A program made the translations under genes and the position numbers. A stretch of DNA of 64,000 nt from an uncultured Thermodesulfobacteriota bacterium (lineage in GTDB: Bacteria > Desulfobacterota > WTBG01 > CAIYCZ01 > CAIRTM01), in NCBI GenBank assembly GCA_964387595.1, contig CAYLYF010000005.1, positions 2,220 through 66,219 of the forward strand, read 5' to 3'. This document shows, one piece after another, positions 4,809 to 20,044 of this stretch. How positions within the stretch are numbered: position 1 is the first letter of the stretch; the number at the start of each line of letters is the position of its first letter. Under the pieces are notes generated by a model that ran no database searches, had not been told where the DNA came from, and was given only the letters and a program-made list of their open reading frames with translations.

Positions 4809-6203
4809 TTAATTGACGTCTGCTTTGCTCACGGAAGCTAATTCCTCGTTAATTTTCCGGCTTGATATTATTAACCATATGGCCAGAAGGACATCAGCCG
4901 CGCCCTTCAGTCCAAAAGCCCAGCCGGGTCCAAGAACATCATACAAATAACCGCCAAGCTGAAGAAACAGGAGCATCCCGATAGGCTGCATCGTGTTTAA
5001 GCCCCCCAGAATAGAACCCAGCATTGCCTTGGGTGTAACATCCGTTGCCATGGTATTTGCACCTGCAATTGAGCCGGAGATTCCAAAAGCAACAATCACC
5101 ACAGTGGCCATAACCAGTCCGGAAAACGGTCCGGAAGAGACAGAAATGATCAACATACCCGTCCCGCCCAGAAAAAGAGTTAAAATAATTGTTTTTAATC
5201 TACCCCATTTGTCAAGCAGTATACCAATAATCGGAAACGCTAAAAAAGTAAAAACACTCATTATGATCATGGGTATAGACCCTTTAAGCGTGGCAGTCTC
5301 AGAGGTTAACCCCAGTTTCGCGCCATCCTGCACAGCCCAGGCAATGATAAATGTTGCCATTATCGTGATGTCCGCGCGGCTGATAAAGGAGCACAGATAA
5401 CTTGACTTTAAAGTCGGGCTTTTCATAACCACCTGCATCACTTCTTTAAAACTTTTCTGGTCTTCTTTTTTAGTCTCTGGCATACGGTCTTTTAAAAAGA
5501 GCCAGGTTGAAAGCAGACCAAAAGCTGCCATGATCGCTGCAACAATAAAAAGTCCTGAAACCCCGCTTTTGCGTCCGATCGGTGCGACCGCTGCAAAAAT
5601 AATAATACTGGCCAGCCCCATCATCATACCGTTTAAGGCCATGGCCTTACCACGGTCTTTTTTAAAGGTATAATCAGCACACATGGTAATAAACTGCGGA
5701 TAGACCAGGATCATCCCCACACCTACTAAAAGTCTTAGGATATAAGCTACAAAAAGACCCGGTGAAAAAGCAATAAACTCTGCCGCTCTGGACGGAGCAA
5801 AGCTCAAGTAAGCACAAAAAGTTGAAGAAAATCCTTCTGAGATGTTCAGCCATTCGGCAATGGCAACAGACTGACCGAAAGCATAATAGGAAAAAATAAG
5901 AGAGAAAAATCCGATAACCGCCAGTATCTTACGGCCGACCTTATCAGAGAGTACCCCCACCATGGCCACAAACGCCAGGGTTGCGATCTGGCTCATATTC
6001 TGCAAAAAACCGTTTATTGAACCAAAAAAGTCTGGAGCAACTTTAATAATATCCTGAAGAAATGCCGGCTGAATAATCGCAGGCATAACCATCAGCATTC
6101 CCATGATCAGGGTATTTAAGTAAAGAAAGAAAAAATTAGCTTTGGTCAGATCCGGTGCCACTTCAATTCCGGCAAACTTAGATACCTTCTGTTCTTCGCT
6201 CAT
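4809..6203 (-). CDS. MFS transporter
   Basis: 464 aa, about 12 hydrophobic segments; MFS motif A in both halves (GVLSDKVGRK, GILLDKWGRL). Confidence 0.9.
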   Translation of the reverse strand: MSEEQKVSKFAGIEVAPDLTKANFFFLYLNTLIMGMLMVMPAIIQPAFLQDIIKVAPDFFGSINGFLQNMSQIATLAFVAMVGVLSDKVGRKILAVIGFFSLIFSYYAFGQSVAIAEWLNISEGFSSTFCAYLSFAPSRAAEFIAFSPGLFVAYILRLLVGVGMILVYPQFITMCADYTFKKDRGKAMALNGMMMGLASIIIFAAVAPIGRKSGVSGLFIVAAIMAAFGLLSTWLFLKDRMPETKKEDQKSFKEVMQVVMKSPTLKSSYLCSFISRADITIMATFIIAWAVQDGAKLGLTSETATLKGSIPMIIMSVFTFLAFPIIGILLDKWGRLKTIILTLFLGGTGMLIISVSSGPFSGLVMATVVIVAFGISGSIAGANTMATDVTPKAMLGSILGGLNTMQPIGMLLFLQLGGYLYDVLGPGWAFGLKGAADVLLAIWLIISSRKINEELASVSKADVN

Positions 6204-6272: not shown

Positions 6273-7622
6273 TTAATTTGTACTCGTGTTATTCGGAAAA
6301 CCGGATCGTTTACAGCCCTTAAAGATCTCCTGCAAAGGATCAGTTTTCATTCTTTTAAGTTTCTGGAACACATCAGGACGATCTTTAGAAACGATCGGCA
6401 TAATTTCAGCCATGGCAGCAGCAACAATTTTAGGAGTTTCATAGGGATCAAGAATACTACGCAGTGTCTTTGTAATTTTACTAAGCAGATAATCAATATC
6501 ATCTACTGTGAGGCAATAAGGCATAACTGCATTACGGATCATGTCACGATGGTCAAGTTTATCGATAATCTCCTTGCGCCACCAGTCAAGATAGACAAAC
6601 ACGCCCTCGCGAGAAATATTTCCTTCAGTTAACGCATATTTTACAGCGTTAGCAGCTTTCCAGCCGCTGATGATCGCTCCGGTCATTTCAGCTTCTTGAC
6701 ACCATACTGCATCAGATACCAGAAGGACCTGGTCTTTATATGGATCAATAATATGAGAATACATATTGCCTTCAATACACAAGGGGCGGATTGTTTCAGC
6801 ATTTTTAAACCAGGGTGCGAAATAGCCCTGCTGGGTAAAACGCTCAAAAGCCCCTTTCACATCTGCGCCGGGATGAGTACAGCTGATAAACGGAAAATAA
6901 GTCTCACCGTCAGCCCGGGGAGTCATCCAGATGCGCATAGGGGTCTTTTCACCCAGAAAAATCTGGAACAGCGCATATTTTTCAGAGGGCTCCACCCCCT
7001 GCATCTCAAAACCATAACTGGTACTGGTCCCGTAATAAATACGATCTTTGTTTTTCCCCAGAGTTTTTGCCAGACGGGAAGCTCTGCCGTCAGCACCGAT
7101 CACAAAGGTTCCTTTAAATTTTGTCCCTTCACGGGTATAAACAGTAACCTGGCCGTTTTGGGTCTGTGTGCCGGTTACATTATGTCCAGGAAAAACATCG
7201 ACACCATATTTTATGCATTCTTTCATCAGACTTTTAAGCAGAGCCCCTTTATCATAGGTCGCGCTGATCCGGCCTTCATCACCCATAGCCTCGTTTTTTT
7301 CATAATCTCCCAGCTGTATTTTGTTCCCTTTATAAGAATATATAGACCAGGAATAAAAATTCTGATGTTTCCCTTCATAGGGAATGGTAAATCCATACGC
7401 CGGAAAGCAGAGCCGCTGGTTCCGTGAATTAATTGAAACGCGGTCTCCCAGATAACAGCCGGTCAGGGTAACGATCATCATGCTGCAGGCACGGTTAATA
7501 TCGGTAATATTTTTTTTCCTTTCAATCAGAGCAACTTTCAGTCCCTGTTCGCCGGCCGTTTTTGCCGCCATTAAACCTGCGGGACCTGCCCCGACAATAA
7601 TTACATCATATACATTTGCCAT
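6273..7622 (-). CDS. NAD(P)/FAD-dependent oxidoreductase, geranylgeranyl reductase/FixC-like (paralog 1)
   Basis: 449 aa. DVIIVGAGPAG Rossmann motif, VIGADGRAS, LVSDA motif. Confidence 0.85.
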   Translation of the reverse strand: MANVYDVIIVGAGPAGLMAAKTAGEQGLKVALIERKKNITDINRACSMMIVTLTGCYLGDRVSINSRNQRLCFPAYGFTIPYEGKHQNFYSWSIYSYKGNKIQLGDYEKNEAMGDEGRISATYDKGALLKSLMKECIKYGVDVFPGHNVTGTQTQNGQVTVYTREGTKFKGTFVIGADGRASRLAKTLGKNKDRIYYGTSTSYGFEMQGVEPSEKYALFQIFLGEKTPMRIWMTPRADGETYFPFISCTHPGADVKGAFERFTQQGYFAPWFKNAETIRPLCIEGNMYSHIIDPYKDQVLLVSDAVWCQEAEMTGAIISGWKAANAVKYALTEGNISREGVFVYLDWWRKEIIDKLDHRDMIRNAVMPYCLTVDDIDYLLSKITKTLRSILDPYETPKIVAAAMAEIMPIVSKDRPDVFQKLKRMKTDPLQEIFKGCKRSGFPNNTSTN

Positions 7623-8066
7623 GTTTTCTCCTCATCTGTGTATCTGTATCTTTGAAAAAATATACTAGTTTATGTTATTCAGGTTCATCTTTTTTACTGC
7701 CGGTTCATAACAGAAATTAATGAAAATGTCCACCAGCCCCGCCTGATTTTCACCAGTCTCCTTAAACGGTTTGCTTACGCGACCAGCACTGACAGATCCT
7801 ATCTCATTCACCTATAAAAGCATATATACTAAAATTCATGACTTAAAGCTAATATTACGAAGGTGGTTAAATTATTTCTAATCATAAAGGTTAATCTAAT
7901 ATACTGATTACTCCAATATTTACAGGATAGATCCGAACAGAGATAATCTTTGCAGTTTTAAACGGACAGTTTATAAGTAATTAATTATAAGTCAAACTTT
8001 TAAAAGTCAGAGCGCATTCACAGTAGCTTGATAATTGCGAAGGATAAAGTCCGGCTGTTCAACCCA

Positions 8067-8237
8067 TCAGATTTCCTGAGGAGCCTTCATCGGACAAACT
8101 TTAACACAGGTTCTGCACTCCAGACATAAAGCTGAATTAATTAAGGCAAAATCTTCATATAAAACGATAGTAGCACGGGGACAAAGGTCCACACATCCTC
8201 CGCAGCCAACACATTTCTGTCTGTCAATCCTGATCAT
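8067..8237 (-). CDS. 2x[4Fe-4S] ferredoxin, 56 aa (below the ORF-track cutoff)
   Basis: Hand translation: MIRIDRQKCVGCGGCVDLCPRATIVLYEDFALINSALCLECRTCVKVCPMKAPQEI*. Two CxxCxxCxxxCP motifs and a GGAG RBS upstream. Confidence 0.9.
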   Translation of the reverse strand: MIRIDRQKCVGCGGCVDLCPRATIVLYEDFALINSALCLECRTCVKVCPMKAPQEI

Positions 8238-8386: not shown

Positions 8387-10186
8387 TTATTTCCGGGTCT
8401 GATTGTCTGTATCAAAATTTACAAAATTCATCACATGCTTTGCCAGCAATTTTCCAACTCTTGGGTCATCATTTGGCGGTCGATAGTATGCCCAGGTCCC
8501 GGTATACTGGTCCTGTACCGGACTGTTTTTATCGGGGTTGCCCACATAAGGATCATAACCCAGATGCCCGTATTCGCAGACATCAAAAGCCAGATACGGA
8601 TCCATATCGCTCATAGATGAATTTATATTTGTCTGTCTCGGCGGCGGATAAACTCCTCCGTCTTCACAGCCGCCCATTTCAAAACAGCATTCTTCTTCAC
8701 CGCACTGCGTATCCACCCAAATCCCCCAGTAATCCGCAAAAGGATAGCCATCTCCAGCATATGAAACTGAATCCCCTGTGTCCGCATACAACCAGTTCTG
8801 GGTACCGATTTCTTTAGCAATCTGGTTATGCTGTTCAACCAGATTTAAAACTGAATCAGTTATGATCTGAGGAAATCCGATAACGATATGCTTCACACCA
8901 CGGTCTTTAAAATATTCAAGCGCATCCCAGTAGAGATATCCCCATTCATCACCCGGCAGCACATAACCCGTGGTTTCGTATAGCCATGCATGACCAATGT
9001 TTTCGCCGCGCATTTCCCGAGATCTCTCGGTTTTACCATTTTCAGGATTTAGCTCCTTAATTCCCATAAAGGCACCGACTATATTTTCAGGATCCATATC
9101 CGGATGCCGTTCCAACAGTATACTCTTAATGTTTTCATTAAGAACAATCGTGTCATTTATTTTAGGATCGAATGCCTGGTTGTAATCGTGTACAGCATGA
9201 TTTAAAAGGAGAACCGCCGTCTCATTATCAGAAACCGCATCTGACCAGGAATCTTCAATTCCATCGGCCTGGAGTTCTGCCAGTTCAGTATCGTTTGATA
9301 TGGGGTTCTGGTCTGCTGCATAGGTAACAGATACATCATTTTCAGGAGCGCCTTTGCTTCTGGTCCAGTTTTTATCAGCTGGAAAAGATCGTTCCATCAA
9401 TTTTGTATAATCATTCACCCAGATAAGAGGAGTCGCAGGATCCGGTGCCGGTATTACAAACTCGTAATCATTGGGATAATAAAGCAGATGCGGAAATGCA
9501 TAATGCGAAACATCCTCGCCTGCCATCCAGGCAGCCCAGTCAACTTCAAAGCTGAAATCTTCTGAAGCGTCCTGAAGATCCAGTTCATCTTTCATATCCT
9601 GAAGCTGTTGTGCTGTAATATCGTCAAAAGGATCGATCCCGCCGAGTTTTTCATATTCATATGCATATTTAAGAACTTCTTTTTCAGCATTACCACTGCT
9701 CAGAATACCGCCCCATAGATTTTTATTCGGTAGATAAAGCATATTAACAGGATGGTTAGGGTCATAGGAAAACATCTGGGTTGAGGCATCCCAGAGATGC
9801 TGCGGCTTATAGGTTGTAAAACCGCCGTGAACCACAAATATCACACCGATTTTATTTGGATCAGCAACAACCGGGCTTGCTGCTTCAGCCTGTTGGGCCT
9901 CCCAGGCATTCATGGCTGTTTTGGTCATCTGTACCACGTCAAAAGTCTTGGCAAAGCGGACTCCTCCCACGGTCAGATCAATCATGATTATCCGGGAAAC
10001 CCCTTTATTCAGGAGTCTTTCCGCCGGGCCTAAAACATCATAGCGTTCGGAATCACAGTCAGTCCATGGACCGTCATCTTCTTTTTCACCACAGTAGTTA
10101 ATGGAATCTTTTGTACAGGAGGATAAAAACATTCCTGTAAAGAACAGGATAAGTAAAACCAATAAAGTGTTTTTGTTAATCTTCAT
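8387..10186 (-). CDS. Lipoprotein with ferrochelatase/class II chelatase-like motifs in unusual order
   Basis: Signal peptide with lipobox LSSC. HemH/CbiX-like segments IGVIFVVHGG, KLGGIDPFDDITAQQL, AVLLLNHAV, DALEYFKDRGVKHIVIGFPQIITD. Start set at the second Met (MKINK); the ORF track starts at 10201. Confidence 0.6.
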   Translation of the reverse strand: MKINKNTLLVLLILFFTGMFLSSCTKDSINYCGEKEDDGPWTDCDSERYDVLGPAERLLNKGVSRIIMIDLTVGGVRFAKTFDVVQMTKTAMNAWEAQQAEAASPVVADPNKIGVIFVVHGGFTTYKPQHLWDASTQMFSYDPNHPVNMLYLPNKNLWGGILSSGNAEKEVLKYAYEYEKLGGIDPFDDITAQQLQDMKDELDLQDASEDFSFEVDWAAWMAGEDVSHYAFPHLLYYPNDYEFVIPAPDPATPLIWVNDYTKLMERSFPADKNWTRSKGAPENDVSVTYAADQNPISNDTELAELQADGIEDSWSDAVSDNETAVLLLNHAVHDYNQAFDPKINDTIVLNENIKSILLERHPDMDPENIVGAFMGIKELNPENGKTERSREMRGENIGHAWLYETTGYVLPGDEWGYLYWDALEYFKDRGVKHIVIGFPQIITDSVLNLVEQHNQIAKEIGTQNWLYADTGDSVSYAGDGYPFADYWGIWVDTQCGEEECCFEMGGCEDGGVYPPPRQTNINSSMSDMDPYLAFDVCEYGHLGYDPYVGNPDKNSPVQDQYTGTWAYYRPPNDDPRVGKLLAKHVMNFVNFDTDNQTRK

Positions 10187-10248
10187 AACATTACCCTGCA
10201 TTTTTAGATTAATTAATTATTGGCTTATACTATTTTTTTTAAAACAGC

Positions 10249-11562
10249 TCAGCCCTTAACGATGTCTTCTGATGATGATTTCCAGTGTTTTTCAATAACA
10301 GCCGCAATTTTGGGTTTCTCTTTTCTGATCTGGTCAATATGGCTCATGATGGCCTTTTCCATCACATAGCCAGCCGTATTTTCGCTGACGTATCCGGCAT
10401 ATTCTTCATTGTTGGTCAGGCTGAAAATATAATCGAGTTCCTCATCCTGGAGCTGTCCGAGGCCGAACGCCTGCAATGCCTTTTCAATTTCACCGGGCCA
10501 GCAGTATTCAAAGCTTTCCCGCCAGAAATTAGTGTAGTCATCATATCCTTTTCCGGTCCCCAGAACTTTAAGCGCAGCTTGGGCTGCCAAATAACCATAC
10601 ATCAGTGCAGACTGACAATAGGTTTCAATAAACGCCGCAGAATCCCCCACCACAACAATATTTCCCTCAACCGGGTTCATAATACAGGTATAAAAATTAA
10701 GCATGCATGCCGCCTTGTGAACAATCTTGGCATTATGAAACCATTCCTTAAACGGTCCTTCGGTTAAAAACCAGTCCAGTCCCATTTTAGCCGGCATACC
10801 GCAGGGAGTTCCGCAAAAAACATCCAGGATAGGTTTGTCCCCTTCCTTTGCGTCAGCCAGATACTTGGGTACCATATAGATCTGGCCTTTGCCCCAGGGT
10901 GTATGTCCCTTGCCCACACAGGTTATCCAAGAATCCCAGTTTGGATAATCCACCTCATCCAGAAAATAGGAGGCCACCCTGTACGACCCAAAATATTTTC
11001 GGGTTTTGAACAGCTCAAGACCGGTGACAATCTGTGAGTTACAACCGTCCGCCGCGAAACAAACCCTGCACCAAACTTCTTTCTGCGTTCGCGTATGACT
11101 ATCACGAATCGTGACCTTTACCTTCCCGTCAATATTTTCCGCTCGGATACCCGCTGTTTCGGTCAGGATATCAACGCCATTGGCCAGAGACTCTTCCAGA
11201 AGATTTCGCAGGATGATCTCTTTAGTATACGGCAGAGCTACCCCGTTTTCACGGTTGACTATGGTCAGCTTGTTGCCGCCGGTTGACATCCTGGAGCTTT
11301 TAACCAGCTTCACATGAGGATGCCCATATTTTACGGTGATACCGGTTTTTTCAAAGTGCAGATCATTGTCAACAAAACGAACGGTTTCCCCATGGGTATT
11401 GGGTTCGTTAATCAGCATGGTACAGCAGGAACGGTAAACCTTTGATATTTCTTTTTTGATGTCGATTAGAAGAACATCCTGACTGGCAGCGGAGAGCTCT
11501 TTAGCGATCATCAATCCCGCAGGCCCTGCGCCTACCACGATAAAATCATATATTTTATTCAT
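10249..11562 (-). CDS. NAD(P)/FAD-dependent oxidoreductase, GGR/FixC-like (paralog 2)
   Basis: 437 aa. DFIVVGAGPAG, FAADGCNS, VVGDSA. Start overlaps the stop of the upstream ferredoxin. Confidence 0.85.
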   Translation of the reverse strand: MNKIYDFIVVGAGPAGLMIAKELSAASQDVLLIDIKKEISKVYRSCCTMLINEPNTHGETVRFVDNDLHFEKTGITVKYGHPHVKLVKSSRMSTGGNKLTIVNRENGVALPYTKEIILRNLLEESLANGVDILTETAGIRAENIDGKVKVTIRDSHTRTQKEVWCRVCFAADGCNSQIVTGLELFKTRKYFGSYRVASYFLDEVDYPNWDSWITCVGKGHTPWGKGQIYMVPKYLADAKEGDKPILDVFCGTPCGMPAKMGLDWFLTEGPFKEWFHNAKIVHKAACMLNFYTCIMNPVEGNIVVVGDSAAFIETYCQSALMYGYLAAQAALKVLGTGKGYDDYTNFWRESFEYCWPGEIEKALQAFGLGQLQDEELDYIFSLTNNEEYAGYVSENTAGYVMEKAIMSHIDQIRKEKPKIAAVIEKHWKSSSEDIVKG

Positions 11563-11792
11563 GAACGCTCCCCTTTTTCGTACGTATCGCTAGTGAAATT
11601 AAGCAACAATATTTCCGGAAAGCGACAGTCGCAATAAATCGCATCCACACCGCAGGCAGCCCTGCAGGTACCACACTCTATACAGGATACTTGATCAATA
11701 AAAGACTTGTCCTCGACGAACCGTATGGCCAGTCTCGGGCAGAGATTAACACAGGCTCCGCAGCCTACGCATATTTCACGATCTACTTTCAT
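11559..11792 (-). CDS. 2x[4Fe-4S] ferredoxin
   Basis: 77 aa. CVGCGACVNLCP and CIECGTCRAACG. Confidence 0.92.
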   Translation of the reverse strand: MKVDREICVGCGACVNLCPRLAIRFVEDKSFIDQVSCIECGTCRAACGVDAIYCDCRFPEILLLNFTSDTYEKGERS

Positions 11793-11832: not shown

Positions 11833-12597
11833 TCATGTACGGCAATGACGGCAAATATCATAAAAATCTTTTGACAATCCGGCTTCTTTGGAAAAATAAG
11901 CCAGCTGATTTTCAGGTGCAAAAGTTTCTCCGCATTCTTTGCAGGTTTTGAGCTTGAGATTAACTTTCCAGTTCTGAATGATCCTTGCAGGCCCCTGTAC
12001 TTTGGTACCGTCATGGGCAACAGCTGTTTCACCTTCCTCAATATCAATAAGCTTTATGGCACCGGTCGGACAGATTTCCGCACAGGTACCGCAGCCGATA
12101 CAGTCTTCTGCTTTTTCATAGAATGGAGATACTGCCAGCTTTTCATAACCGCGGTTAGCAAAACCAATGGCGCTCATACCGACCAGTTCGCTGCAGGCCC
12201 GGACACATCTGCCGCAGGCAATACAGAGTTCGTTCCTTGGCGCAAAGCGTTTCACCGGTTTAACCCCAAGGTCACGTGCCAGATCCTGAATTACTTTTGC
12301 CTCAGGCGCTTCTGACAACAGCAGTTCAATAATGCAGGCCCGAATACCCCTGATCTTTTCTGTGGCTGTAAGAACGGTCAGGCCCTCTTCAGCCTTATAT
12401 ACGCAAGAACTGACAACATGTGACACACCGCCTCTGTTTATTTCTACCACACACAGCCTGCATCCACCCGTTGGGGTGAGTGAATCATGATGACATAAAG
12501 TTGGGATCCAGACACCGATCTTTTGAGCTGCCTGTAAGAGAGTGGCTCCTTCCGGAACCTGTACCTGAACTTCATCAATTTTGAGTGTTACCATCAT
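11833..12597 (-). CDS. NuoG/HydA N-terminal-like (HoxU/BamI-type) Fe-S subunit without a catalytic domain
   Basis: 254 aa. [2Fe-2S] motif IPTLCHH..GGCRLCVVE..SSC, two [4Fe-4S] motifs (CIACGRCVRAC, CIGCGTCAEICP), extra C-terminal CKEC..CRHC. No H-cluster or Mo-bisPGD domain. Confidence 0.88.
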   Translation of the reverse strand: MMVTLKIDEVQVQVPEGATLLQAAQKIGVWIPTLCHHDSLTPTGGCRLCVVEINRGGVSHVVSSCVYKAEEGLTVLTATEKIRGIRACIIELLLSEAPEAKVIQDLARDLGVKPVKRFAPRNELCIACGRCVRACSELVGMSAIGFANRGYEKLAVSPFYEKAEDCIGCGTCAEICPTGAIKLIDIEEGETAVAHDGTKVQGPARIIQNWKVNLKLKTCKECGETFAPENQLAYFSKEAGLSKDFYDICRHCRT

Positions 12598-12671
12598 AAC
12601 TCCTTGGAATATAAGGAAAAGACTTAAATACTCTAAACCTTTTCCTGTTTATAACATAAATATCCAACCTG

Positions 12672-14543
12672 TTAGGTCAGTACAGCGCCCACAGGACAAA
12701 TTTCTGAGCAGGCGCCGCACTTGATGCATTTTTTTAAATTAATTTTATGCGCCTTTTTCTTTTCACCGCTTACAGCTGCACTGGGGCAGGCCTTTAGACA
12801 GGCACCGCATCCAATACATGCTTTTTTATCAATTGAATATTTAACAAGTTCACGGCATACACCTGCCGGACATTTCTTATCCTTAATATGCGCCAGGTAC
12901 TCATCCTTAAAATATTTCAAGGTAGACAGTACCGGGTTAGGTGCTGTCCGGCCAAGTCCGCACAAAGCTGAGTCCTTAATCGTACCCGCCAGTTTTTCAA
13001 GCAATGCAAGGTCTTTTATCGTTCCACGGCCTTCACATATGTCCTCAAGAATTTCTCTCATTCTTCTAACGCCCACACGGCAGGGAGTACACTTACCGCA
13101 GGATTCGTCTTCCAGAAACCTGAGGAAATAAAGAGCCACATCGACCATACATGTTTTTTCATCCATGACGATCAGACCGCCGGATCCCATAATAGAACCG
13201 GTCTCAGCCAGTTTATCATAATCCACAGGCATATCGATCAGACTTTCAGGGATACAGCCGCCGGACGGGCCGCCGGTCTGAACAGCTTTGAATGCCTTAT
13301 CTCCAGGAATACCGCCGCCGATATCAAAAATAATTTCCCGCAGGCTTATTCCCATAGGCACTTCGACCAGTCCTACATTATTAACTTTTCCAACCAGAGA
13401 AAACACCTTGGTTCCCTTACTGGTTTCTGTTCCCACAGCAGAAAACAATTTTGCACCGTTCTTAACCAGAGCTGGAACATTGGCCAGAGTTTCAACATTA
13501 TTTATTATGGTGGGACATCCATACAAGCCCTGTACAGCTGGGTATGGCGGTCTTTGCTGCGGTTCACCGCATTCACCTTCAACAGACTGAATCAAAGCTG
13601 TTTCTTCACCACATACAAAGGCACCGGCACCCCGACTGATACGGATATCAAAACTAAAATCAGACTTTAAGACTGAATCACCGATAATACCGTTTTCACG
13701 GGCCTTTTCAATGGCTATCTCCAATCGCTGAATCGCCAGTGGATATTCATCTCTCACATAGATCACGCCCTGGGAAGCACCGACAGCATAGCCGGCAATG
13801 AGCATGCCCTCTATTACTGCATGCGGATCGCCTTCAAGGATACTTCTGTCCATATAGGCACCCGGATCACCTTCATCCGCATTACATATAATATATTTTT
13901 GTTTACCGCGAGCCTTTCGACAGGTCTTCCATTTAAGTCCGGTTGAGAAACCGCCACCGCCGCGTCCGCGCAAGCCGGCTTTCTTCACTTCATTAATGAC
14001 CTGCATAGACGTTTTTTCACTCAGTGCAGTAGCCAGACCTTCATAACCGCCAAGGGCGACATATTCATCAATATTTTCCGGATCAATAATACCACAGTTG
14101 CGCAGCGCAACCCGATGCTGTTTGCAGTAAAAAGCATGGCTTTTGCTGTCAGGCACATTTTCACAGCAGGGCTCGTCAGCAGATGGATCTAATGATGTTT
14201 GTAGCAGCGCTCCTTCCGGAATCGTATCCAGTTTAATCGCAGCCAGTATTGCCTGAACTTCATCATGAGTTACCTTACCATAGGTCAGCCTGACTTTACC
14301 GGGTATCCAGACATCAACCAAAGGTTCCTGATGACACATACCGTTACATCCGGCTTTTTGAACTTGAACATCCATTTTGCGCTTTTTAATCCCTTTAATA
14401 AAAGCGTCCAAAACGGTCTGTGCACCTGCAGCAAGGCCGCAGGAGGCAAAACCAACCGAAATCTTGATTCGTTCGGGCAACAGTGAAGCCTGCCCGGATT
14501 TTTCCAGTTTCTCTAAATGCGTAAAAGGTTTACCCTTCATCAT
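12672..14543 (-). CDS. NuoF/HydB/HoxF-family NADH/FMN-binding subunit (long form)
   Basis: 623 aa. GLRGRGGGGF, NADEGDPGAYMDRS, GAGAFVCGEETAL, GGPSGGC, ESCGKCTPCR; N-terminal Trx-like [2Fe-2S] domain and C-terminal 2x[4Fe-4S]. Confidence 0.95.
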   Translation of the reverse strand: MMKGKPFTHLEKLEKSGQASLLPERIKISVGFASCGLAAGAQTVLDAFIKGIKKRKMDVQVQKAGCNGMCHQEPLVDVWIPGKVRLTYGKVTHDEVQAILAAIKLDTIPEGALLQTSLDPSADEPCCENVPDSKSHAFYCKQHRVALRNCGIIDPENIDEYVALGGYEGLATALSEKTSMQVINEVKKAGLRGRGGGGFSTGLKWKTCRKARGKQKYIICNADEGDPGAYMDRSILEGDPHAVIEGMLIAGYAVGASQGVIYVRDEYPLAIQRLEIAIEKARENGIIGDSVLKSDFSFDIRISRGAGAFVCGEETALIQSVEGECGEPQQRPPYPAVQGLYGCPTIINNVETLANVPALVKNGAKLFSAVGTETSKGTKVFSLVGKVNNVGLVEVPMGISLREIIFDIGGGIPGDKAFKAVQTGGPSGGCIPESLIDMPVDYDKLAETGSIMGSGGLIVMDEKTCMVDVALYFLRFLEDESCGKCTPCRVGVRRMREILEDICEGRGTIKDLALLEKLAGTIKDSALCGLGRTAPNPVLSTLKYFKDEYLAHIKDKKCPAGVCRELVKYSIDKKACIGCGACLKACPSAAVSGEKKKAHKINLKKCIKCGACSEICPVGAVLT

Positions 14544-15016
14544 TTATTGTCTTTTCTATATTGTTGAAGTAAATTTCCGGTTTTAACCTGAGTCATGCCG
14601 CCGTGAATATCGTCATTGATTTTAACCACCGGAGCCATACTGCAGCATCCGAGACAGCGGACTTTTTTTAAGGTAAACTCACCATCAGCACTGGTTCCTT
14701 CACCGGCTTCAATTCCAAGCTCACGGGAAACACTCTGCGTCAGGTTATCCGCATTTTTAACATGACAGGCGGTACCCGTACATACACTGACAGTGTTTTT
14801 CCCCTGGGGATCCAGACTGAATGAATGATAAAAAGAAGCAACAGCAAATATTTTACTGAGGGGAATCTCTAATTCTTCAGATGCATGCGACAAGACCTCC
14901 TTCGGCAGATAACCGAATTCTGACTGAATGTCCTGCAGCAGCGTGATCAGTGTTCCCTTTTCCTCTTTATGTTTTTGAACTATTTGCTTAACTTTATTTT
15001 TTCGTGGCAATTTCAT
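14540..15016 (-). CDS. NuoE/HydC-family [2Fe-2S] subunit
   Basis: LITLLQDIQSEFGYLP, VASFYHSF, VCTGTACHVK, VRCLGCCSMAPVV. Start set at MKLPRK (15016), overlapping the end of the PorB-like gene. Confidence 0.93.
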   Translation of the reverse strand: MKLPRKNKVKQIVQKHKEEKGTLITLLQDIQSEFGYLPKEVLSHASEELEIPLSKIFAVASFYHSFSLDPQGKNTVSVCTGTACHVKNADNLTQSVSRELGIEAGEGTSADGEFTLKKVRCLGCCSMAPVVKINDDIHGGMTQVKTGNLLQQYRKDNK

Positions 15017-15935
15017 GGATTGTTCCCGTTTTTTGAATGTCCTCATAAAATTCATCAACAGCCGTCTGAAATGCAGGCATCAGACTTGCTGGAAAGGTGA
15101 AAAAGCGCTTTTGTAAAGCCAGATATTCCTGAACCGGTTTACGGTTTTTCGACTGTATCGTGAGCCGGATAACACCGTCAATTACTTCGTACAGCGGAAA
15201 ATATCCGGTTAAGACCGCCCTGCGGCCGATATCAAGTGTTTTATTCGAAGCAAATATCCATCCGGTGGGGCACGGGGTCAAAACCAGGATAAAAGCATTA
15301 CCAGGACTGTCAAGGCCCCGACGGACCTTTTCGATCAGATCAAACGGATGGCTTGGACAGGCTGTTGCCATATAAGAAAAATCTTCTTTCGCAGCAACAG
15401 CGGGAATATTTTTTTGCCGGACAGCATCCCTGACATCCTTTTCATTAACAGAATGTTTTCTTTCATTCTGTATAAAAGGCCGGGGAATTGCCCTGCGGAT
15501 AAGTGTATCCATAGCAGGTTCATTATCAAAACAGACAATCAAAGCATTTTTATTCTTCAAAAAACGCTGTAAAACAACATAATCACTGTCAAGCACCTTT
15601 CGGTCAATCCCGATCACAGGCTTTTTAACCGCCACATGAGACGACTTAGACTGACGGGCTGACTTTGCATTAAAACTGTCTATTACAAAGACAAGTTTTT
15701 CAAGAGTGTCTGCTGTATTCACACGGTCATGTGCAAAAGTGTTTGCGCTCAGAGCCGAATTGGAAATTCCGGTATGACCGTTTATACCGCCCAGCGCCGG
15801 ATCTGCGCTATCAGTTACTTTGGATACAAGCCGTGCGGCCAGAGACTTAACACACCCTTTACATGAGCGCCTTCCGCTTAGAAAGCGTTCCTGACGGGGT
15901 AAAATTTTCGGTACAAATACAGAGAACCTATCCAT
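14994..15935 (-). CDS. Degenerate 2-oxoacid:ferredoxin oxidoreductase beta-subunit-like protein (PorB/PadI-like)
   Basis: Retains SGRRSCKGC, CFDNE, YMATACPSHPFDL, TPCPTGW and GYFPLYE, but lacks the GDG TPP-binding motif. GGAGG RBS before MDRFSVF. Confidence 0.75.
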   Translation of the reverse strand: MDRFSVFVPKILPRQERFLSGRRSCKGCVKSLAARLVSKVTDSADPALGGINGHTGISNSALSANTFAHDRVNTADTLEKLVFVIDSFNAKSARQSKSSHVAVKKPVIGIDRKVLDSDYVVLQRFLKNKNALIVCFDNEPAMDTLIRRAIPRPFIQNERKHSVNEKDVRDAVRQKNIPAVAAKEDFSYMATACPSHPFDLIEKVRRGLDSPGNAFILVLTPCPTGWIFASNKTLDIGRRAVLTGYFPLYEVIDGVIRLTIQSKNRKPVQEYLALQKRFFTFPASLMPAFQTAVDEFYEDIQKTGTIHEIATKK

Positions 15936-15958
15936 TAATAAGTTGCCTCCCAAACATA

Positions 15959-16249
15959 TTATTTAACCAGCCACGGAGCGCGCTCTACGGCAATTTCCAG
16001 TGATATACAACCGGTGACACACTGCTGTATGCAAAGACCGCAGCCTTTACAATACGTTAAATCCGCTGCATAGAATCCGTCTTCATTTTGAAAAATGGCA
16101 CCGTCAGGACAGGACAGATAGCATATTCCACAGCGCACACATTTTTGCGTATCCCATACAGGCCTCTCAAAACGCCAGTCATCATTTATCTTAAAATCAT
16201 CAGTAATTGGATTAACGGACCCAAATTTTATACAATCTTGTTTTTTCAT
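15959..16249 (-). CDS. 2-oxoacid:ferredoxin oxidoreductase delta-subunit-like ferredoxin (PorD/PadF-like)
   Basis: 96 aa. DWRFERPVWDTQKCVRCGICYLSCPDG and CKGCGLCIQQC. Confidence 0.88.
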   Translation of the reverse strand: MKKQDCIKFGSVNPITDDFKINDDWRFERPVWDTQKCVRCGICYLSCPDGAIFQNEDGFYAADLTYCKGCGLCIQQCVTGCISLEIAVERAPWLVK

Positions 16250-16335
16250 CTTTATCTGCTTAATTAGTAGTTTAAGTATTTTTTGTTAAACTGCTTACTT
16301 AAGTTATTATTATTTAAAACCCAGGAAAATAAAAA

Positions 16336-17661
16336 TCAATAACAGGGATAGCCTATCCGGCTGGCCTTACTCATCATTAAAGCTGCTCTTTCCGGGGTAA
16401 ACATCTCAATTTTTTTAGCAATTATCGGACGCTCTTTTCTGATGGTTTCCAAATGTGGTTTTAAGCCCTGGCTGATCCCCCGGTACATCAAAAAGGGATT
16501 CATCGTCCAAGGAAGCTTGGTGTCAACGATCTGGTGGAGATAGTTATGCTCCTCCTCATTAAACAGCCTGTTAAATACTGGATATAAAACAAATTCTTTA
16601 TAATCATGGGTTTCCACCCAGTTTTTCTGCCACCAGTCAATATAATCTTTCACCCCTTCACGGTTCACCTGGCCTGTATGCAGGGCTTTACACACAGCAT
16701 TTGCCGCCTTATGTCCCGATAGCAGCGCACCGGTATTTTCCGCTTCAGCAAACCAGCAGCTGTCTCCCACAAATATTATATTATCCTTAAAAGGCTCTTT
16801 GGCAGGGCTCCAGTTGCTTATAACTGCACAGCGCTCATGGGTAATCTCCACATTCTTAAACCAGTGCTTATAGTTACTTTGCTGAGTCAGATATTCAAGC
16901 CGTTCCTTACCTTGAATATAAAGCCAGTATTCGTCCGGACTGTAAACACTTGGAAGCATACTGAACATGATCGTACCCAGCTGACCCGGACCATAACAAA
17001 GTCCAAGAGCGATCATTTCGGAGCGGTCAAATTCAACCCCAGTGATATAGTAGCTGTTGGCACGGCCGGTATTAATAAAAATCCGGTCACGATTCAGACC
17101 CGAGATCCGGGCAAGTCTTGAATTAGCACCATCGGCAGCTATACAGAAGCTGCCCGTAAAAGAATCTCCTTCCGCTGTTTTAACACGGACACCCTCCGGG
17201 GTGTTTCTGGCAGAAATCACATTCCGGCCCAGATAAAAATCTACAGTTGCCTGAATTCCCTCTTCATAAATACCGCCAAGGAGTGCGCCTTTATCAAAGA
17301 CAACCGCGGGCACACCCGCACCGGAAGCATTTTTTTCATAATCACCGATCTCAATACGGTCTTTTCCATTTGGCGCAATAAAATGGAGGGCGTAAAATTC
17401 ACGATAATCGCCGGCATAGTTTACTGAGAAATTATTCACCGGAAATACCCAGCGTTTTTGCTCGCGTGAAAAGTACATGTTTTCATTATAGAATGAATCC
17501 ATATTCAGCAGAAACATCTGCGCACAGGACCGCTGAATCTTTGCAGGATCTGTTTTGCGTTCGATCAATGCTACTTTCAGTCCGTTCTGAGCCGCAGTTT
17601 TTGCCGCTTCAAGTCCAGACGTTCCACCGCCAACAACGATTAAATCATATTTTTCAGACAT
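16336..17661 (-). CDS. NAD(P)/FAD-dependent oxidoreductase, GGR/FixC-like (paralog 3)
   Basis: 441 aa. DLIVVGGGTSG, IAADGANS, FVGDSC. Clearly alignable to 6273-7622. Confidence 0.85.
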   Translation of the reverse strand: MSEKYDLIVVGGGTSGLEAAKTAAQNGLKVALIERKTDPAKIQRSCAQMFLLNMDSFYNENMYFSREQKRWVFPVNNFSVNYAGDYREFYALHFIAPNGKDRIEIGDYEKNASGAGVPAVVFDKGALLGGIYEEGIQATVDFYLGRNVISARNTPEGVRVKTAEGDSFTGSFCIAADGANSRLARISGLNRDRIFINTGRANSYYITGVEFDRSEMIALGLCYGPGQLGTIMFSMLPSVYSPDEYWLYIQGKERLEYLTQQSNYKHWFKNVEITHERCAVISNWSPAKEPFKDNIIFVGDSCWFAEAENTGALLSGHKAANAVCKALHTGQVNREGVKDYIDWWQKNWVETHDYKEFVLYPVFNRLFNEEEHNYLHQIVDTKLPWTMNPFLMYRGISQGLKPHLETIRKERPIIAKKIEMFTPERAALMMSKASRIGYPCY

Positions 17662-17922: not shown

Positions 17923-18303
17923 CTATTTTAGTGACGCAATATTTTCATAAAATGAATCTATTACCGGTACCATAAGTGCCGATATCTCTTTAAGAAATGA
18001 TTTTCCAAAGGAAGTCAGCGAATAATACTTTCTGTTTGCACCCTGAGCAGACGGTTCTTTGATACTTTTAAGAATTCCTTCTGCCTCCAACGTCCGCAGT
18101 TTTTTGTAAAGGTTATTGCGGTCAATGTCAAAAGCACCTTCTGTAATAGTATAGATCTCATCCTTTATTTCATAAGCATATTTTGGGCTTCTGCTGATAA
18201 GAGACAGTACTGTAAATTGCAGAAATCCCCGTTTAATGTCAAATTGAAGTTGTTCAAGATGCTTACTCAGTATTTGCTGCTCGTTGATGTTTAATTTCAC
18301 CAT
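17923..18303 (-). CDS. PadR-family transcriptional regulator
   Basis: 126 aa. YAYEIKDEI, NLYKKLRTLEAEG, NRKYYSLTSFG. Confidence 0.9.
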   Translation of the reverse strand: MVKLNINEQQILSKHLEQLQFDIKRGFLQFTVLSLISRSPKYAYEIKDEIYTITEGAFDIDRNNLYKKLRTLEAEGILKSIKEPSAQGANRKYYSLTSFGKSFLKEISALMVPVIDSFYENIASLK

Positions 18304-18632
18304 TTTTTCAGCCTTGAGTAAAGGTTAGAGATATAGTTTGATAAGATACATTTACACACACTAGTTCTAACAAAATTAAAAGTCAAGCATGAAATTATTT
18401 TTTTGAAGCTTAAGATTAGAATAAATATAAATTGAGGACCGTCAAGGTCCGGAATCCATATCGCCACATCACATTATTTAAATGTTTAATAACAAATGCT
18501 GTTTTGAACAATAACCGTTAAATAACAAATCATGAAAAGACCTATACATAAATATCTCTTGAATTAGTTTTTTAAATCAGGTATATCTTCTTGCAAAATA
18601 GATAAATTTTTTTAATAAAAAAATAAGAATCA

Positions 18633-19016
18633 ATGAAAACCAAAAAAAATAAATTATTAGAAAAAGAAATAATCAAACAGCATCATGATCAGATCGTATT
18701 TGACCTGAAACGGGCCTTCCTGCAATCTATAACCCTGATATTGATCAATCAGGGATCAAAATACACATATGAAATAAAGGCCGATATCTTAAAACTCTCA
18801 AAAGGCGGTTTTGACATTGACCGTAATAATCTCTATAAAAAGCTGAGATCGCTTGAAAAAGACGGTGTCCTAGACAGTCATCTTGAACCTTCCGCTAAAG
18901 GAGCACAGCGTAAATACTATACCATAACACCCCAGGGACAAGAATTGCTGACCAGAAGCATCGCGACTTTATCTCCCCTGATCTCTTCATTAAAGGAACA
19001 TCTTGTGAACAGGTAA
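18633..19016 (+). CDS. PadR-family transcriptional regulator (divergent paralog)
   Basis: 127 aa. YTYEIKADI, FDIDRNNLYKKLRSLEKDG, RKYYTITPQG. Confidence 0.9.
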   Translation: MKTKKNKLLEKEIIKQHHDQIVFDLKRAFLQSITLILINQGSKYTYEIKADILKLSKGGFDIDRNNLYKKLRSLEKDGVLDSHLEPSAKGAQRKYYTITPQGQELLTRSIATLSPLISSLKEHLVNR

Positions 19017-19089
19017 AGACTCAATAGTTAACCTTAAGGTCACCCTGCAATCTATAATAATTTCGGAATCTCCTGATTATAACCAGCAA

Positions 19090-19290
19090 AATCAGGATCG
19101 ATAATTATTTTGGTACCGCAATGATCAGCGTTATAAAGCGGATTAGAGGGGCCCGCTTAAAAAAGTAATTCCCTGTCAAAATTAAACAACTCTTTCTTTA
19201 CTGCTTCATCAATAACAAATTCAGTAGCCCCTTTAACAGAAATACTGGCATGGTCGTCTGGACGGTACTAAAAATACCCGCCTTAAATTG
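19090..19290 (-). pseudogene. Remnant of a pyridoxamine 5'-phosphate oxidase-like (split-barrel) gene
   Basis: Hand translation *YRPDDHASISVKGATEFVIDEAVKKELFNFDRELLF*AGPSNPLY resembles the C-terminal half of PNPOx-like/general stress proteins. In-frame stops; no start. Confidence 0.4.
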
Positions 19291-19330
19291 TTGAAAACTT
19301 CACAAACTTTCTTCGATTTACCCCTTTTTT

Positions 19331-19876
19331 CTATCGTGTCCAGGAAACGCGAAATATCCCTTCCGCTGGATTTGTGTATCTAATCCGATTGGGCTCAATG
19401 ACGATGATTTTGTGATTAAATTTAGGGTTGAGGTTTTTTGACTGAATTTTTCTACCTCCGATAACAATGTTCATTGCTTTAAATGCTTTTTCAAACAATT
19501 CGGAGTCCTCTTTTCTGCTGTAAATTACCGCTTTCCCCCATGCCTGCAGTCCCTTGTAACCCCAGAAATCATCAGCGAGATTATAGGGTTCTGCAATCGA
19601 AAAAGCGATCTTTTTGTTTTTTTTAAGGTTGCTAAACTTACTGCCCCCCTCGGAAAGAACATAAAAGGTTAATCCGCGCGACATGTATCCAACAGGGGTG
19701 GAACGCGGGGCATCATTTTTTGACGTGCACAGGTGCAGGACCTCATTTCTTTTAATAAACTTTATAAGATCTTTTTCAAAGGAGCTTGCCGATCGGTAAT
19801 TTTTTAATTTCAACCCCGATTTCTTAAAAACCTCTGTTACATTTGTTGGTATAGAATCCTGTTTAATTTTTGACAT
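19331..19876 (-). CDS. Pyridoxamine 5'-phosphate oxidase family flavin-binding protein
   Basis: 181 aa. LHLCTSKNDAPRSTPV, KFSNLKKNKKIAFSI, GLQAWGKA. Confidence 0.85.
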   Translation of the reverse strand: MSKIKQDSIPTNVTEVFKKSGLKLKNYRSASSFEKDLIKFIKRNEVLHLCTSKNDAPRSTPVGYMSRGLTFYVLSEGGSKFSNLKKNKKIAFSIAEPYNLADDFWGYKGLQAWGKAVIYSRKEDSELFEKAFKAMNIVIGGRKIQSKNLNPKFNHKIIVIEPNRIRYTNPAEGIFRVSWTR

Positions 19877-19955
19877 ATCACTTCACCTTTCTTGAGATTT
19901 ATGTTAACCGGTTATCTGCTTCGATTAAGTAATTTTGAAAAAAAATAGTAATTAT

Positions 19956-19974
19956 CCACGGCTAAAAGCCGTTG
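19956..19974. repeat. IS200/IS605-end-like hairpin
   Basis: CCACGGCTAAAAGCCGTTG (stem ACGGCT/AGCCGT). Resembles the CCACGGCTAAAGCCGTGG-type subterminal hairpins of IS200/IS605 elements. No transposase nearby. Confidence 0.35.
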
Positions 19975-20044
19975 TTTTATCTTGTAATAAAATTCATCAA
20001 TTAAAAAACTCACAAGCCGTACGGCTCTCATGCTGTAATATAAA

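Follow-up and report, generated by a model that had tools for sequence, protein, structure and literature searches.

A permuted variant within a new family of exported proteins of the ferrochelatase fold, encoded by an uncultured Thermodesulfobacteriota bacterium

The question raised by this locus is whether a ferrochelatase-like protein can carry the segments of its fold in an order other than that of the HemH enzymes and, if it does, how this order came about and what the protein may do. The gene lies on the minus strand of a 64,000-nucleotide stretch of an uncultured Thermodesulfobacteriota bacterium (contig CAYLYF010000005.1, forward-strand positions 2,220 to 66,219, assembly GCA_964387595.1), which as a whole is called the window here, and encodes a predicted lipoprotein. 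An earlier note, made from the DNA letters alone, had proposed that the chain of this lipoprotein runs from a segment B to a segment A and then to domain 2 (segment C), the HemH order being A-B-domain 2. This lipoprotein fits best into a new family with the ferrochelatase (class II chelatase) fold, in which it is a permuted variant.

Layout of the Protein and Order of Its Segments

The gene and its parts are as follows:

8387..10201, minus strand: open reading frame of the ferrochelatase-fold lipoprotein, B-A-C topology, 604 residues, stop codon at 8387-8389
10115..10186, minus strand: signal peptide and lipobox, MKINKNTLLVLLILFFTGMFLSS followed by C29, read from the sequence
9881..10105, minus strand: segment B, residues 33-107, GPAERLLNKGVSRIIMIDL..KTFDVV
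9857..9880, minus strand: new B-to-A linker, residues 108-115 (..ASPVVADP..)
9506..9856, minus strand: segment A, residues 116-232
9434..9505, minus strand: new A-to-C linker, residues 233-256, at the ancestral site of segment B
8420..9433, minus strand: segment C, residues 257-594 (AVLLLNHAV..DALEYFKDRGVKHIVIGFPQIITD..E)
8807..9433, minus strand: beta4 (LIWVND) and the C-terminal chelatase domain
8420..8806, minus strand: Cys-rich, family-specific C-terminal region, residues 466-594

The true start of the protein is probably Met6 at 10186, the end coordinate given in the earlier note, since homologues begin MKINK. The hydrophobic signal peptide ends in ..GMFL-S-S-C29, matching the lipobox pattern [LVI][ASTVI][GAS]C and predicting lipidation; this lipobox (LSSC, Cys29) and the quoted segments B, A and domain 2 are all present as first described, the last lying within residues 257-594. 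Segment B holds a Cys37..Cys49 loop, a helix (59-64), a strand (68-75) and a long helix (81-106). In segment A, beta1 (IGVIFVVHGG, with His125) is followed by a helical layer, which carries the ferrochelatase-like motif YEKLGGIDPFDDITAQQL, and then by beta2 (FSFEVDWAAW). The C-terminal chelatase domain includes LLLNH335A, FD345PK347, a family-specific insert at residues 379-423 and GVKHIVIGFPQIITDSVL452NLVE456, while the Cys-rich region contains C500, C505, C506 and C512 together with many invariant aromatic, Gly and Pro residues, its final helix being packed back onto the fold in the AlphaFold2 model described below.

Segment order was classified from motif positions and segment hidden Markov models (HMMs) in 196 full-length sequences. 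The order A-B-C was found in 171 of these and B-A-C in 25, the latter comprising the window protein, sequences P0001-P0016, P0048 and P0049, and loci L001 and L006-L010, and the proposed B-A-C order is borne out by the family alignment. Segment B is recognized there by a signature of about 75 residues, 'YCGE..GPW..C..RY.V.GP.ERLL.KGVS.I...D.T.GG.RF.KT..V', which in most members is flanked by '..FEVDWA.WM.GD...HYPYPR' and 'PL.WVND..LMERSYP'; the window protein and its closest relatives have it right behind the signal peptide. None of the 196 members carries two copies of B or lacks it. Apparent 'A-B-A-C' architectures were rejected as an artefact, the HMM for A having taken in alignment columns in which A-B-C sequences already begin segment B.

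The B-A-C order, with identical junction positions, is seen again in ENA, JGI, NCBI and Logan assemblies among sequences 50-99% identical, no repeats were found flanking the segment junctions, and both new linkers are conserved in length. Because order and junctions recur in independent assemblies and the junctions are free of repeats, misassembly is excluded for practical purposes. The suggestion that B-A-C arose in the window from chimeric assembly, from a frameshift or from faulty gene calling can be dismissed, as the open reading frame is uninterrupted along 8387..10201, the same order and junctions stand in 25 sequences from four independent data sources and six further genome loci, the linker lengths are conserved, and the whole chain, including segment B, is modelled with confidence. 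The permuted order appears to be a lineage property, its reading as an assembly error being effectively refuted by recurrence rather than by reads.

In a circular permutant the whole sequence is rotated; here only A and B have changed places, and C (257-594) stays C-terminal. The rearrangement is a rotation of the A+B sub-region or, equivalently, the relocation of a segment, and the original description of a segment swap rather than a simple circular permutation is right for the chain as a whole.

Assignment to the Ferrochelatase Fold

AlphaFold2 models were built on the family alignment for the window protein (B-A-C) and for P0031, an A-B-C member, and compared with the Protein Data Bank (PDB) using Foldseek. 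The window model has a predicted local distance difference test score (pLDDT) of 89.5, with 79-98 in segment B, and a predicted template modelling score (pTM) of 0.89; the P0031 model has a pLDDT of 90.3. PDB matches 1-42 of the window model are all ferrochelatases, including human FECH, Listeria and Bacillus CpfC/HemH and the yeast enzyme, with E-values down to 9e-6, probabilities of 0.84-1.0 (1.0 for matches 1-34) and a target template modelling (TM) score of up to 0.61; the subsequent matches are periplasmic binding proteins at E >0.2. The P0031 model retrieves the same ferrochelatase list with E-values down to 4.7e-10 and TM scores of 0.72-0.74 for B. subtilis HemH, followed by SirB (5zt7) at E ~7e-3; over the two models, the leading 42-44 matches consist of ferrochelatases throughout. 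Against 1ak1 the target TM score is 0.72 for the A-B-C model and 0.55 for the B-A-C model (E 1.8e-9 vs 3.7e-4), a lower B-A-C score that is expected if an order-dependent aligner cannot place the relocated unit.

Weak matches to PF00762 occur in 44 of 66 members (best E 7.9e-5) and no other fold-level family recurs, while the best PDB sequence matches of the family profile are to B. subtilis ferrochelatase, on 'YE.IGG.SPL..IT..Q'. The window protein itself gives sub-threshold ferrochelatase matches on residues 154-223 (E 0.037 in Pfam; 0.08-0.12 in NCBIfam). A phmmer search of the window protein against PDB sequences returned nothing, a profile of domain 2 alone found no ferrochelatase among PDB sequences, and a homologue search with E. 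coli HemH listed only matches of 86-98% identity, from which no diverse HemH profile resulted. The class II chelatase fold has two Rossmann-like alpha/beta domains that enclose a cleft, and each domain contains a four-stranded parallel sheet of the order beta2-beta1-beta3-beta4 (PMC13065792 for the sheet order). The AlphaFold2 models and the Foldseek ranking place the protein in this class, the sheet order itself being cited rather than read from the model. Judged from these models, the protein almost certainly adopts the two-domain class II chelatase (ferrochelatase) fold, in agreement with the earlier note.

Segment B as the Beta3 Unit of HemH

The secondary structure elements of the N-terminal domain lie at the following residues:

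beta1: 31-41 in the A-B-C model, 114-126 in the B-A-C model
beta2: 129-139 in the A-B-C model, 217-226 in the B-A-C model
helix of B: 188-194 in the A-B-C model, 59-64 in the B-A-C model
strand of B: 199-204 in the A-B-C model, 68-75 in the B-A-C model
long helix of B: 212-233 in the A-B-C model, 81-106 in the B-A-C model
beta4: 239-241 in the A-B-C model, 259-261 in the B-A-C model

The three elements of B keep a constant 129-residue offset between the models, with a dip in pLDDT at the same place after the strand. In A-B-C relatives, B forms a helix-strand-helix between beta2 and beta4, as in HemH (beta1..beta2-alpha4-beta3-alpha5-beta4); the canonical order beta1-beta2-beta3-beta4 is found in these relatives, and the window protein reads beta3-beta1-beta2-beta4. 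In local hhalign comparison, 'VLGPAERLLNKGVSRIIMIDL' (residues 56-76 of the window protein) is paired with residues 107-127 of E. coli HemH at E 0.058, or at 0.026 when the A-B-C profile is used, and the domain-2 stretch 'DALEY.K.RGVKHIVIGFPQI.TDSVLNLVE' with E. coli HemH 249-283. Both pairings are individually weak, yet they fall exactly at the positions predicted by the fold assignment. The A-B-C model, the difference in TM score against 1ak1 and these alignments support segment B as the alpha4-beta3-alpha5 unit of the N-terminal chelatase domain of HemH. The lack of a chelatase fold and a segment B mapping outside the beta3 region had been named beforehand as outcomes fatal to the proposal, and neither was found; a third such outcome, a chimeric assembly, is opposed by the recurring junctions.

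The beta2-beta1-beta3-beta4 sheet could still be formed in the B-A-C order. In the permuted chain alpha5 would have to return to beta1, the left neighbour of beta3, instead of beta4, the right neighbour, and if alpha5 stays in place the beta3-alpha5-beta1 connection would form a crossover of the rare left-handed kind. The A-to-C linker, with its 24 residues, would need to span the sheet between beta2 and beta4.

Direction and History of the Relocation

All Gammaproteobacterial and Alphaproteobacterial members read A-B-C. Because A-B-C is the HemH order and the sole order in these distant members, it is taken as ancestral and B-A-C as derived, and the permutation is very probably both real and derived. 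The ancestral order would have been beta1 - helices - beta2 - [alpha4-beta3-alpha5] - beta4 - domain 2, as in HemH, from which the bracketed unit would have moved to the N-terminus, directly behind the lipobox, in one mainly Thermodesulfobacteriota lineage, creating two new linkers (B to A, and A to beta4). The breakpoints sit in loops of variable length among A-B-C members. Duplication followed by deletion is the standard model for permutation; applied to this sub-region, the likeliest route would be an internal duplication to A-B-A-B-C and subsequent loss of the first A and the second B. No duplication intermediate was found, and an HMM of segment B from A-B-C members detected no remnant at the old site in B-A-C proteins stripped of their N-terminal copy (all E >=0.6). 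A MAFFT pairing of 'PNDYEFVIP' with 'PDRYNVDGP' was considered as a vestige of B and is treated as chance.

Both forms occur within single metagenome-assembled genomes (MAGs). PL23b_bin.63 carries one B-A-C gene (L008) and three A-B-C genes (L016, L028, L067), and both forms are also found in SRP141376_co4_291 (L006, L025) and SKW55 (L010, L057). They likewise share an operon slot, occupied by an A-B-C gene at L002 and by B-A-C genes at L001, L006, L008-L010 and in the window.

Neighbour-joining (NJ) trees, with bootstraps on the concatenated A+B+C regions and on single regions, recover the main B-A-C group as monophyletic in 95 of 100 replicates (concatenated); it comprises 18 non-redundant sequences, drawn entirely from Thermodesulfobacteriota or 'delta' MAGs. 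A divergent B-A-C pair, P0048 and P0049 (the latter being L007, from Spirochaetota), does not join this group reliably, and monophyly of all B-A-C sequences is recovered in only 22 of 100 concatenated replicates and in 1-29 of 100 depending on the region, which speaks against a settled single event. The relocation may have happened twice, in the Thermodesulfobacteriota clade and in the P0048/P0049 pair, as suggested by the separation of the two groups in NJ trees of the C region and by the absence of a lipobox and the unrelated gene context of the pair. This is improbable, however: the segment boundaries are the same in both groups, the A-to-C linkers differ by 3 residues and the B-to-A linkers by ~1, the A region alone gives all-B-A-C monophyly in the point tree, and the pair forms a long branch (~50% identity) that NJ places poorly. 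The neighbours of the Spirochaetota B-A-C gene gave no useful information. A single relocation event, combined with transfer and long-branch effects, is favoured.

The existence of both forms matters beyond this locus. Homologues ~60% identical that differ by a moved internal helix-strand-helix are a very rare natural case, and with both forms extant in the same genomes and the same operon slot they offer a clean system for studying how such rearrangements arise and fold. The pair is also a hard test case for order-dependent alignment and structure-comparison tools.

Size, Hosts and Export of the Family

At least 562 homologous clusters at 90% identity were found in the protein collection. The source names among the matches listed are 'hypothetical protein' only, no Pfam domain for the family core is among them, and no account of the family or its gene clusters was found in the literature. 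Searches of 1.84 billion 50%-identity representatives gave 156 matches at E <=1e-3, ~10 of them full length, and because so few representatives match, the family appears well conserved and isolated in sequence space. Among one-genome-per-species contigs, 156 stretches encode a relative. The named sources are all MAGs or single-cell genomes, from Thermodesulfobacteriota ('Deltaproteobacteria'), Gammaproteobacteria (Ca. Foliamicus, Chromatiales, Steroidobacteraceae), Alphaproteobacteria (Rhodospirillaceae) and one Spirochaetota single-cell genome. Identity between the window protein and other members is ~50-75% across three phyla, with dozens of invariant charged and aromatic residues in all segments. 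What is defined here is a sizeable family of exported ferrochelatase homologues without a Pfam model, with a two-His cleft and no canonical catalytic Glu, in uncultivated Thermodesulfobacteriota and Proteobacteria.

A [GAS]C lipobox-like end of the signal peptide is present in 119 of the 186 members with a complete N-terminus; the other 67 have mostly ordinary Sec signal peptides among those inspected, and some members bear thrombospondin-3 (TSP3), dockerin or Ig-like extensions. On these predicted signals the family is extracytoplasmic throughout.

Some A-B-C members (P0095, P0104, P0032, P0062, P0088 and others) carry inserts, which in some cases add ~80-100 residues to segment B between its YCGE and GG.RF loops. 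Many other members have a ~65-residue insert in the C-terminal region along with long TSP3, dockerin or Ig-like extensions. Family genes also occur in tandem, two or three in a row (L014, L027, L037), and up to four paralogues are found per MAG, both topologies included, as in PL23b_bin.63 (L008, L016, L028, L067).

Conserved Residues and the Putative Ligand Pocket

Conservation was counted over the 196 full-length sequences, and the residues listed here are conserved in >=95% of them unless stated. In segment B these are C37 and C49, with W46, R53, D75, R82, F83 and K85 at >=99.5%. Segment A contributes H125-G-G at the end of beta1 and G187-G-x-D190-P. Segment C contributes W261-x-N-D264 just behind beta4, H335 where the first strand of domain 2 ends, D345-P-K347-x-x-D350, R395-x-M-R-G-E400, W425, H438, L452, E456, C500, C505, C506 and C512, along with numerous further positions of the C-terminal region. 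Both His-bearing strands are kept, as had been noted from the single sequence, His125 in >=95% and His335 in >=99.5% of members.

In the motif alignment H125 stands opposite Leu13 of E. coli HemH ('GVIFVVHGG' vs 'GILLANLGT'), a position that is Tyr13 in B. subtilis and Met76 in the human enzyme; PDB entry titles with 'Tyr13Met' and 'M76H' among the Foldseek matches mark both as targets of mutagenesis. H335 follows directly on strand 328-333 and stands opposite the catalytic His ('LLLNHA' vs 'LLLSYHG'; B. subtilis His183, human His263), a positional match, and 'FDPK' stands opposite the 'GDDY/GDPY' motif of HemH. The pocket would, as aligned, keep one His on each face with the canonical acid/base Glu gone.

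Gene Neighbourhood

The lipoprotein gene of the window is surrounded by the following genes, listed from the head of the cluster:

17923..19876, no single strand: two PadR regulators (mutually divergent) and a PNPOx-like protein (181 residues), head of the cluster
14994..17661, minus strand: PorB-like protein (319 residues), 96-residue ferredoxin (15962..16249) and a third geranylgeranyl-reductase-like (GG-reductase-like) flavin adenine dinucleotide (FAD) protein (441 residues)
11833..15058, minus strand: NADH module of HoxU/NuoG-N-like (254 residues), NuoF-like (623 residues) and NuoE/HoxE-like (172 residues) proteins
11559..11792, minus strand: 2x[4Fe-4S] ferredoxin, 77 residues, paired with the 437-residue flavoprotein
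10249..11562, minus strand: FAD protein of the GG-reductase family, 437 residues, 47 nucleotides upstream of the lipoprotein gene
6273..8237, minus strand, downstream: 56-residue ferredoxin (8067..8237) and GG-reductase-like FAD protein of 449 residues (6273..7622)
4809..6203, minus strand: major facilitator superfamily (MFS) transporter

The cluster begins with the PadR and PNPOx-like genes, the 441-residue flavoprotein with its 96-residue ferredoxin, the PorB-like gene and the NuoE-, NuoF- and HoxU-like genes. It continues with the 77-residue ferredoxin and 437-residue flavoprotein, the lipoprotein, and the 56-residue ferredoxin and 449-residue flavoprotein, and ends with the MFS transporter followed by FAD_binding_4, CCG and FAD_binding_4 proteins. 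The same cluster is found at L001, L002, L006 and L008-L010. The placement of an exported protein inside a redox operon holds, given its signal peptide and the neighbouring flavoproteins, ferredoxins and NADH module. PorB is the beta subunit of 2-oxoacid:ferredoxin oxidoreductases; the PorB-like protein (14994-15953, minus strand) has no Pfam match and matches the NCBIfam PorB model at E 1e-42, far below its cutoff; its presence beside an NADH module and three GG-reductase-like flavoproteins is unusual.

Related loci add genes that are absent from the window. Two tandem paralogues of ~220 residues with twin-arginine translocation (Tat) signals stand right after the lipoprotein gene at almost every locus with the operon type of the window (L001:11867-13200; 13 loci); they share 41% identity and conserved Cys residues, and no Pfam or PDB match was found for them. 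Their homology to bilin reductases was considered and ruled out (BLASTP E 0.6 and 53). This operon type also encodes, a few genes further downstream, a second ferrochelatase-like protein of 481 residues with an N-terminal transmembrane helix and a PF00762 match at E 3e-4 (L009:14737-16182; also L002, L006, L008 and L010). At the position of the catalytic Glu it seems to retain an acidic residue, and its search against PDB sequences returned nothing.

Neighbours were counted over 73 loci:

17 of 73 loci: MFS transporter, the most frequent neighbour
13 of 73 loci: GG-reductase-like flavoprotein
13 of 73 loci: Tat-signal paralogues
12 of 73 loci: DUF1838
12 of 73 loci: short-chain dehydrogenase/reductase (SDR)
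11 of 73 loci: Fe_bilin_red-like protein, often the next gene (Pfam E 8.5e-13 and 4e-7)
10 of 73 loci: PNPOx-like protein
8 of 73 loci: FAD_binding_4
8 of 73 loci: Chlorophyllase/PETase-like lipoprotein, all in Rhodospirillaceae, the next gene in 4
8 of 73 loci: Rieske+VanA_C
6 of 73 loci: MMPL
6 of 73 loci: DUF1302
6 of 73 loci: BNR/Ycf48-like protein
5 of 73 loci: DUF1329
5 of 73 loci: Old Yellow Enzyme (OYE), best NCBIfam match 'bilirubin reductase, long form', nearly tied with BaiCD
5 of 73 loci: second ferrochelatase-like protein

A Flavin_Reduct+PCP_red protein also recurs near the family gene. The Fe_bilin_red-like genes, which resemble ferredoxin-dependent bilin reductases (L003:11838-12545; L029:12539-13270), adjoin family members in presumably anaerobic Thermodesulfobacteriota MAGs, in a context of MMPL/DUF1302/DUF1329/BNR, PNPOx, BilR/BaiCD-like OYE and MFS genes that differs from the published pre-PcyA contexts (heme oxygenase, V4R, globin). 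The Chlorophyllase-matching lipoprotein (E 8e-12; PETase-like too) is encoded directly after the family member at L041:16604-17593, and also occurs at L052, L066, L078 and L081, often with a Rieske+VanA_C oxygenase just upstream.

No tRNA genes were found in the window, and scanning for promoters and terminators gave nothing informative. A stretch of low G+C content beside the cluster (18000-24000; 0.35-0.38 vs ~0.44-0.47 in the flanks) contains a PIF1-like helicase with a WYL domain (21240-22778) and may be a mobile or recently acquired island. An 828-residue open reading frame at 33712-36198 (minus strand) has no Pfam match at E <=1e-6.

Proposed Function and Alternatives

The protein is periplasmic or surface-anchored and is encoded alongside transporters and cytoplasmic reductases. 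Taken as a whole, the best explanation, to which we give a probability of about 0.5, is an exported chelatase-fold protein with a relocated segment that would handle tetrapyrroles in the periplasm. A tetrapyrrole ligand is slightly favoured because the HemH pocket motifs are kept and several unrelated families linked to tetrapyrroles or bilins are found as neighbours (Fe_bilin_red-like, Chlorophyllase-like, BilR-like OYE, PNPOx-like, second ferrochelatase-like, PCP_red and GG-reductase-like proteins). Catalytic metalation or demetalation, with removal or exchange of the metal ahead of import as the preferred form, is a more tentative suggestion, an enzyme role being indicated by the very high conservation of many polar residues. 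The tetrapyrrole would be bound in the interdomain cleft between His125 and His335, where segment B would contribute Asp75, Arg82, Phe83 and Lys85 to the lining alongside the conserved FDPK motif. Its metal would probably be removed or exchanged by the protein in the periplasm, and the product would pass to the MFS importer and then to ferredoxin- and NADH-dependent cytoplasmic reductases.

Several observations weigh against this explanation. The scores of the window protein for the ferrochelatase models lie below their thresholds (13.5 bits against a cutoff of 27 for PF00762; 11.7 against 124.6 for TIGR00109, hemH), and neither HemH nor any other ferrochelatase is among the matches at E <=1e-3 in the 1.84 billion representatives. 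The equivalences of His125 and His335 are putative, resting on strand-end position and short motif alignment. In the column of the catalytic Glu (B. subtilis Glu264, human Glu343), a point absent from the earlier note, the family reads T-D-S-V-L452-N-L-V-E456 against A-D-C-L-E-T-L-E-E in E. coli, with Leu452 in >=95% of members, and since this position is an invariant Leu, a canonical ferrochelatase mechanism is unlikely. No neighbour is universal across the 73 loci and contexts vary, and the catabolism-type neighbours (MMPL/DUF1302/DUF1329/BNR, acyl-CoA dehydrogenase, SDR, Rieske/VanA_C) are typical of hydrophobic substrates other than tetrapyrroles.

Two serious alternatives, both rather unlikely and to about the same degree, account for parts of this evidence. 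The protein could be a non-catalytic periplasmic heme or porphyrin binding or hand-over protein, with the two His as axial ligands and its cargo destined for a transporter. Such a carrier fits the Leu in place of the catalytic Glu, the two invariant His facing the cleft from one domain each, the MFS transporter as commonest neighbour, and the binding of metalated porphyrins by exported CbiK(P) and FetB, the latter first described as hemin-binding (PMC13065792). FetB, however, proved to have chelatase activity (PMC13065792), and invariant charged and aromatic residues at ~50-75% identity across phyla, with only ~10 full-length clusters at 50% identity, fit an enzyme site better.

Alternatively, the scaffold could have been co-opted for a hydrophobic substrate that is no tetrapyrrole (isoprenoid, steroid-like or aromatic), bound or transformed in the periplasm in a step that would precede uptake and reduction or beta-oxidation-like catabolism. 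This would account for the MMPL/DUF1302/DUF1329/BNR neighbours, which are tied in the literature to fatty alcohol, monoterpene and hydrocarbon metabolism, and for the acyl-CoA dehydrogenase, SDR, Rieske+VanA_C/KshA_C, alpha/beta hydrolase and FAD_binding_4 oxidoreductase genes nearby; GG-reductase-like enzymes act on isoprenoid double bonds, the canonical Glu is gone, and the large insert and C-terminal region could reshape the cleft. The porphyrin-pocket motifs of HemH are nevertheless kept (IGG..P...I...Q, the strand-end His, D-P), the Fe_bilin_red, Chlorophyllase, BilR-like, PCP_red and second ferrochelatase-like neighbours are independent of one another, and periplasmic binding proteins gave no significant Foldseek match.

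Within the preferred reading of periplasmic tetrapyrrole handling, a narrower version is speculative and rather improbable: a periplasmic metallo-tetrapyrrole (de)chelatase might open an undescribed, largely anaerobic salvage or catabolism of environmental pigments derived from chlorophyll or heme in sediments and soils, with the MFS importer and bilin-reductase-like, BilR-like and NADH/ferredoxin-driven GG-reductase-like enzymes performing the later steps. We know of no described bacterial pathway that deals with chlorophyll and heme pigments in anoxic settings, and if the tetrapyrrole link is true, these clusters would supply genes for it. If the protein is indeed a pigment (de)chelatase, the B-A-C lineage would show that an enzyme tolerates non-circular rewiring of a Rossmann-like domain.

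Comparison with Known Systems

HemH/CpfC (PF00762; B. subtilis 1AK1, human 1HRK) has the same two-domain fold and is the sole significant type of PDB match. Motifs in common are the beta1 G-h-h-h-x-x-x-G, YE.IGG..P...I...Q, the alpha4-beta3 stretch (ERLL.KGV..I), the strand-end His of domain 2 with D-P after it, and GV.HI....P.F..D....L.E, and the chain order of HemH is that of the A-B-C members. Unlike HemH, the window protein is exported and lipidated (as predicted) rather than cytoplasmic or matrix-side, is ~280 residues longer owing to the insert at 379-423 and the Cys-rich C-terminal region, has Leu at the catalytic Glu and His where E. coli has Leu13, and in its lineage alpha4-beta3-alpha5 precedes beta1. 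By score threshold, chain order and catalytic Glu, the window protein is outside the HemH enzyme family.

The nearest precedents for an extracytoplasmic location are the periplasmic CbiK(P) of D. vulgaris and FetB/IhtB of P. gingivalis, class II chelatase-fold proteins of anaerobes that bind metalated porphyrins (PMC13065792). FetB inserts Co and Mn into a porphyrin analogue, and deletion of fetB greatly lowers the production of Mn-protoporphyrin IX (PMC13065792). An export signal is common to these proteins and the window protein, in the latter the lipobox LSSC; they belong to the CbiK family, however, with canonical topology and ~270-300 residues. No CbiK/CbiX Pfam match was found for the window protein at E <=10, and no CbiK structure is among the listed Foldseek matches of either model.

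SirB is a weak fold match to the A-B-C model (5zt7, E 7e-3). SirB and CbiX use a His at the end of beta1 in the N-terminal domain, the position of His125 in this family, but they are much smaller cytoplasmic enzymes, and no match to the family was found for them at the sequence level. For the speculative dechelatase reading, the STAY-GREEN (SGR) Mg-dechelatase offers a functional analogy only, being of an unrelated family to which no homology was found; SGR takes the central metal out of chlorophyll-type tetrapyrroles. It has bacterial homologues (PMC8531759, PMC11006732).

The closest parallel to the rearrangement itself is found in circular permutants, as understood under the duplication-deletion model. 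There too adjacent blocks are exchanged, the three-dimensional fold is kept and both topologies are extant among close homologues. Unlike circular permutants, the window protein and its B-A-C relatives have rotated only A+B, the 340-residue C part staying in place, with the strand order changed from 1-2-3-4 to 3-1-2-4.

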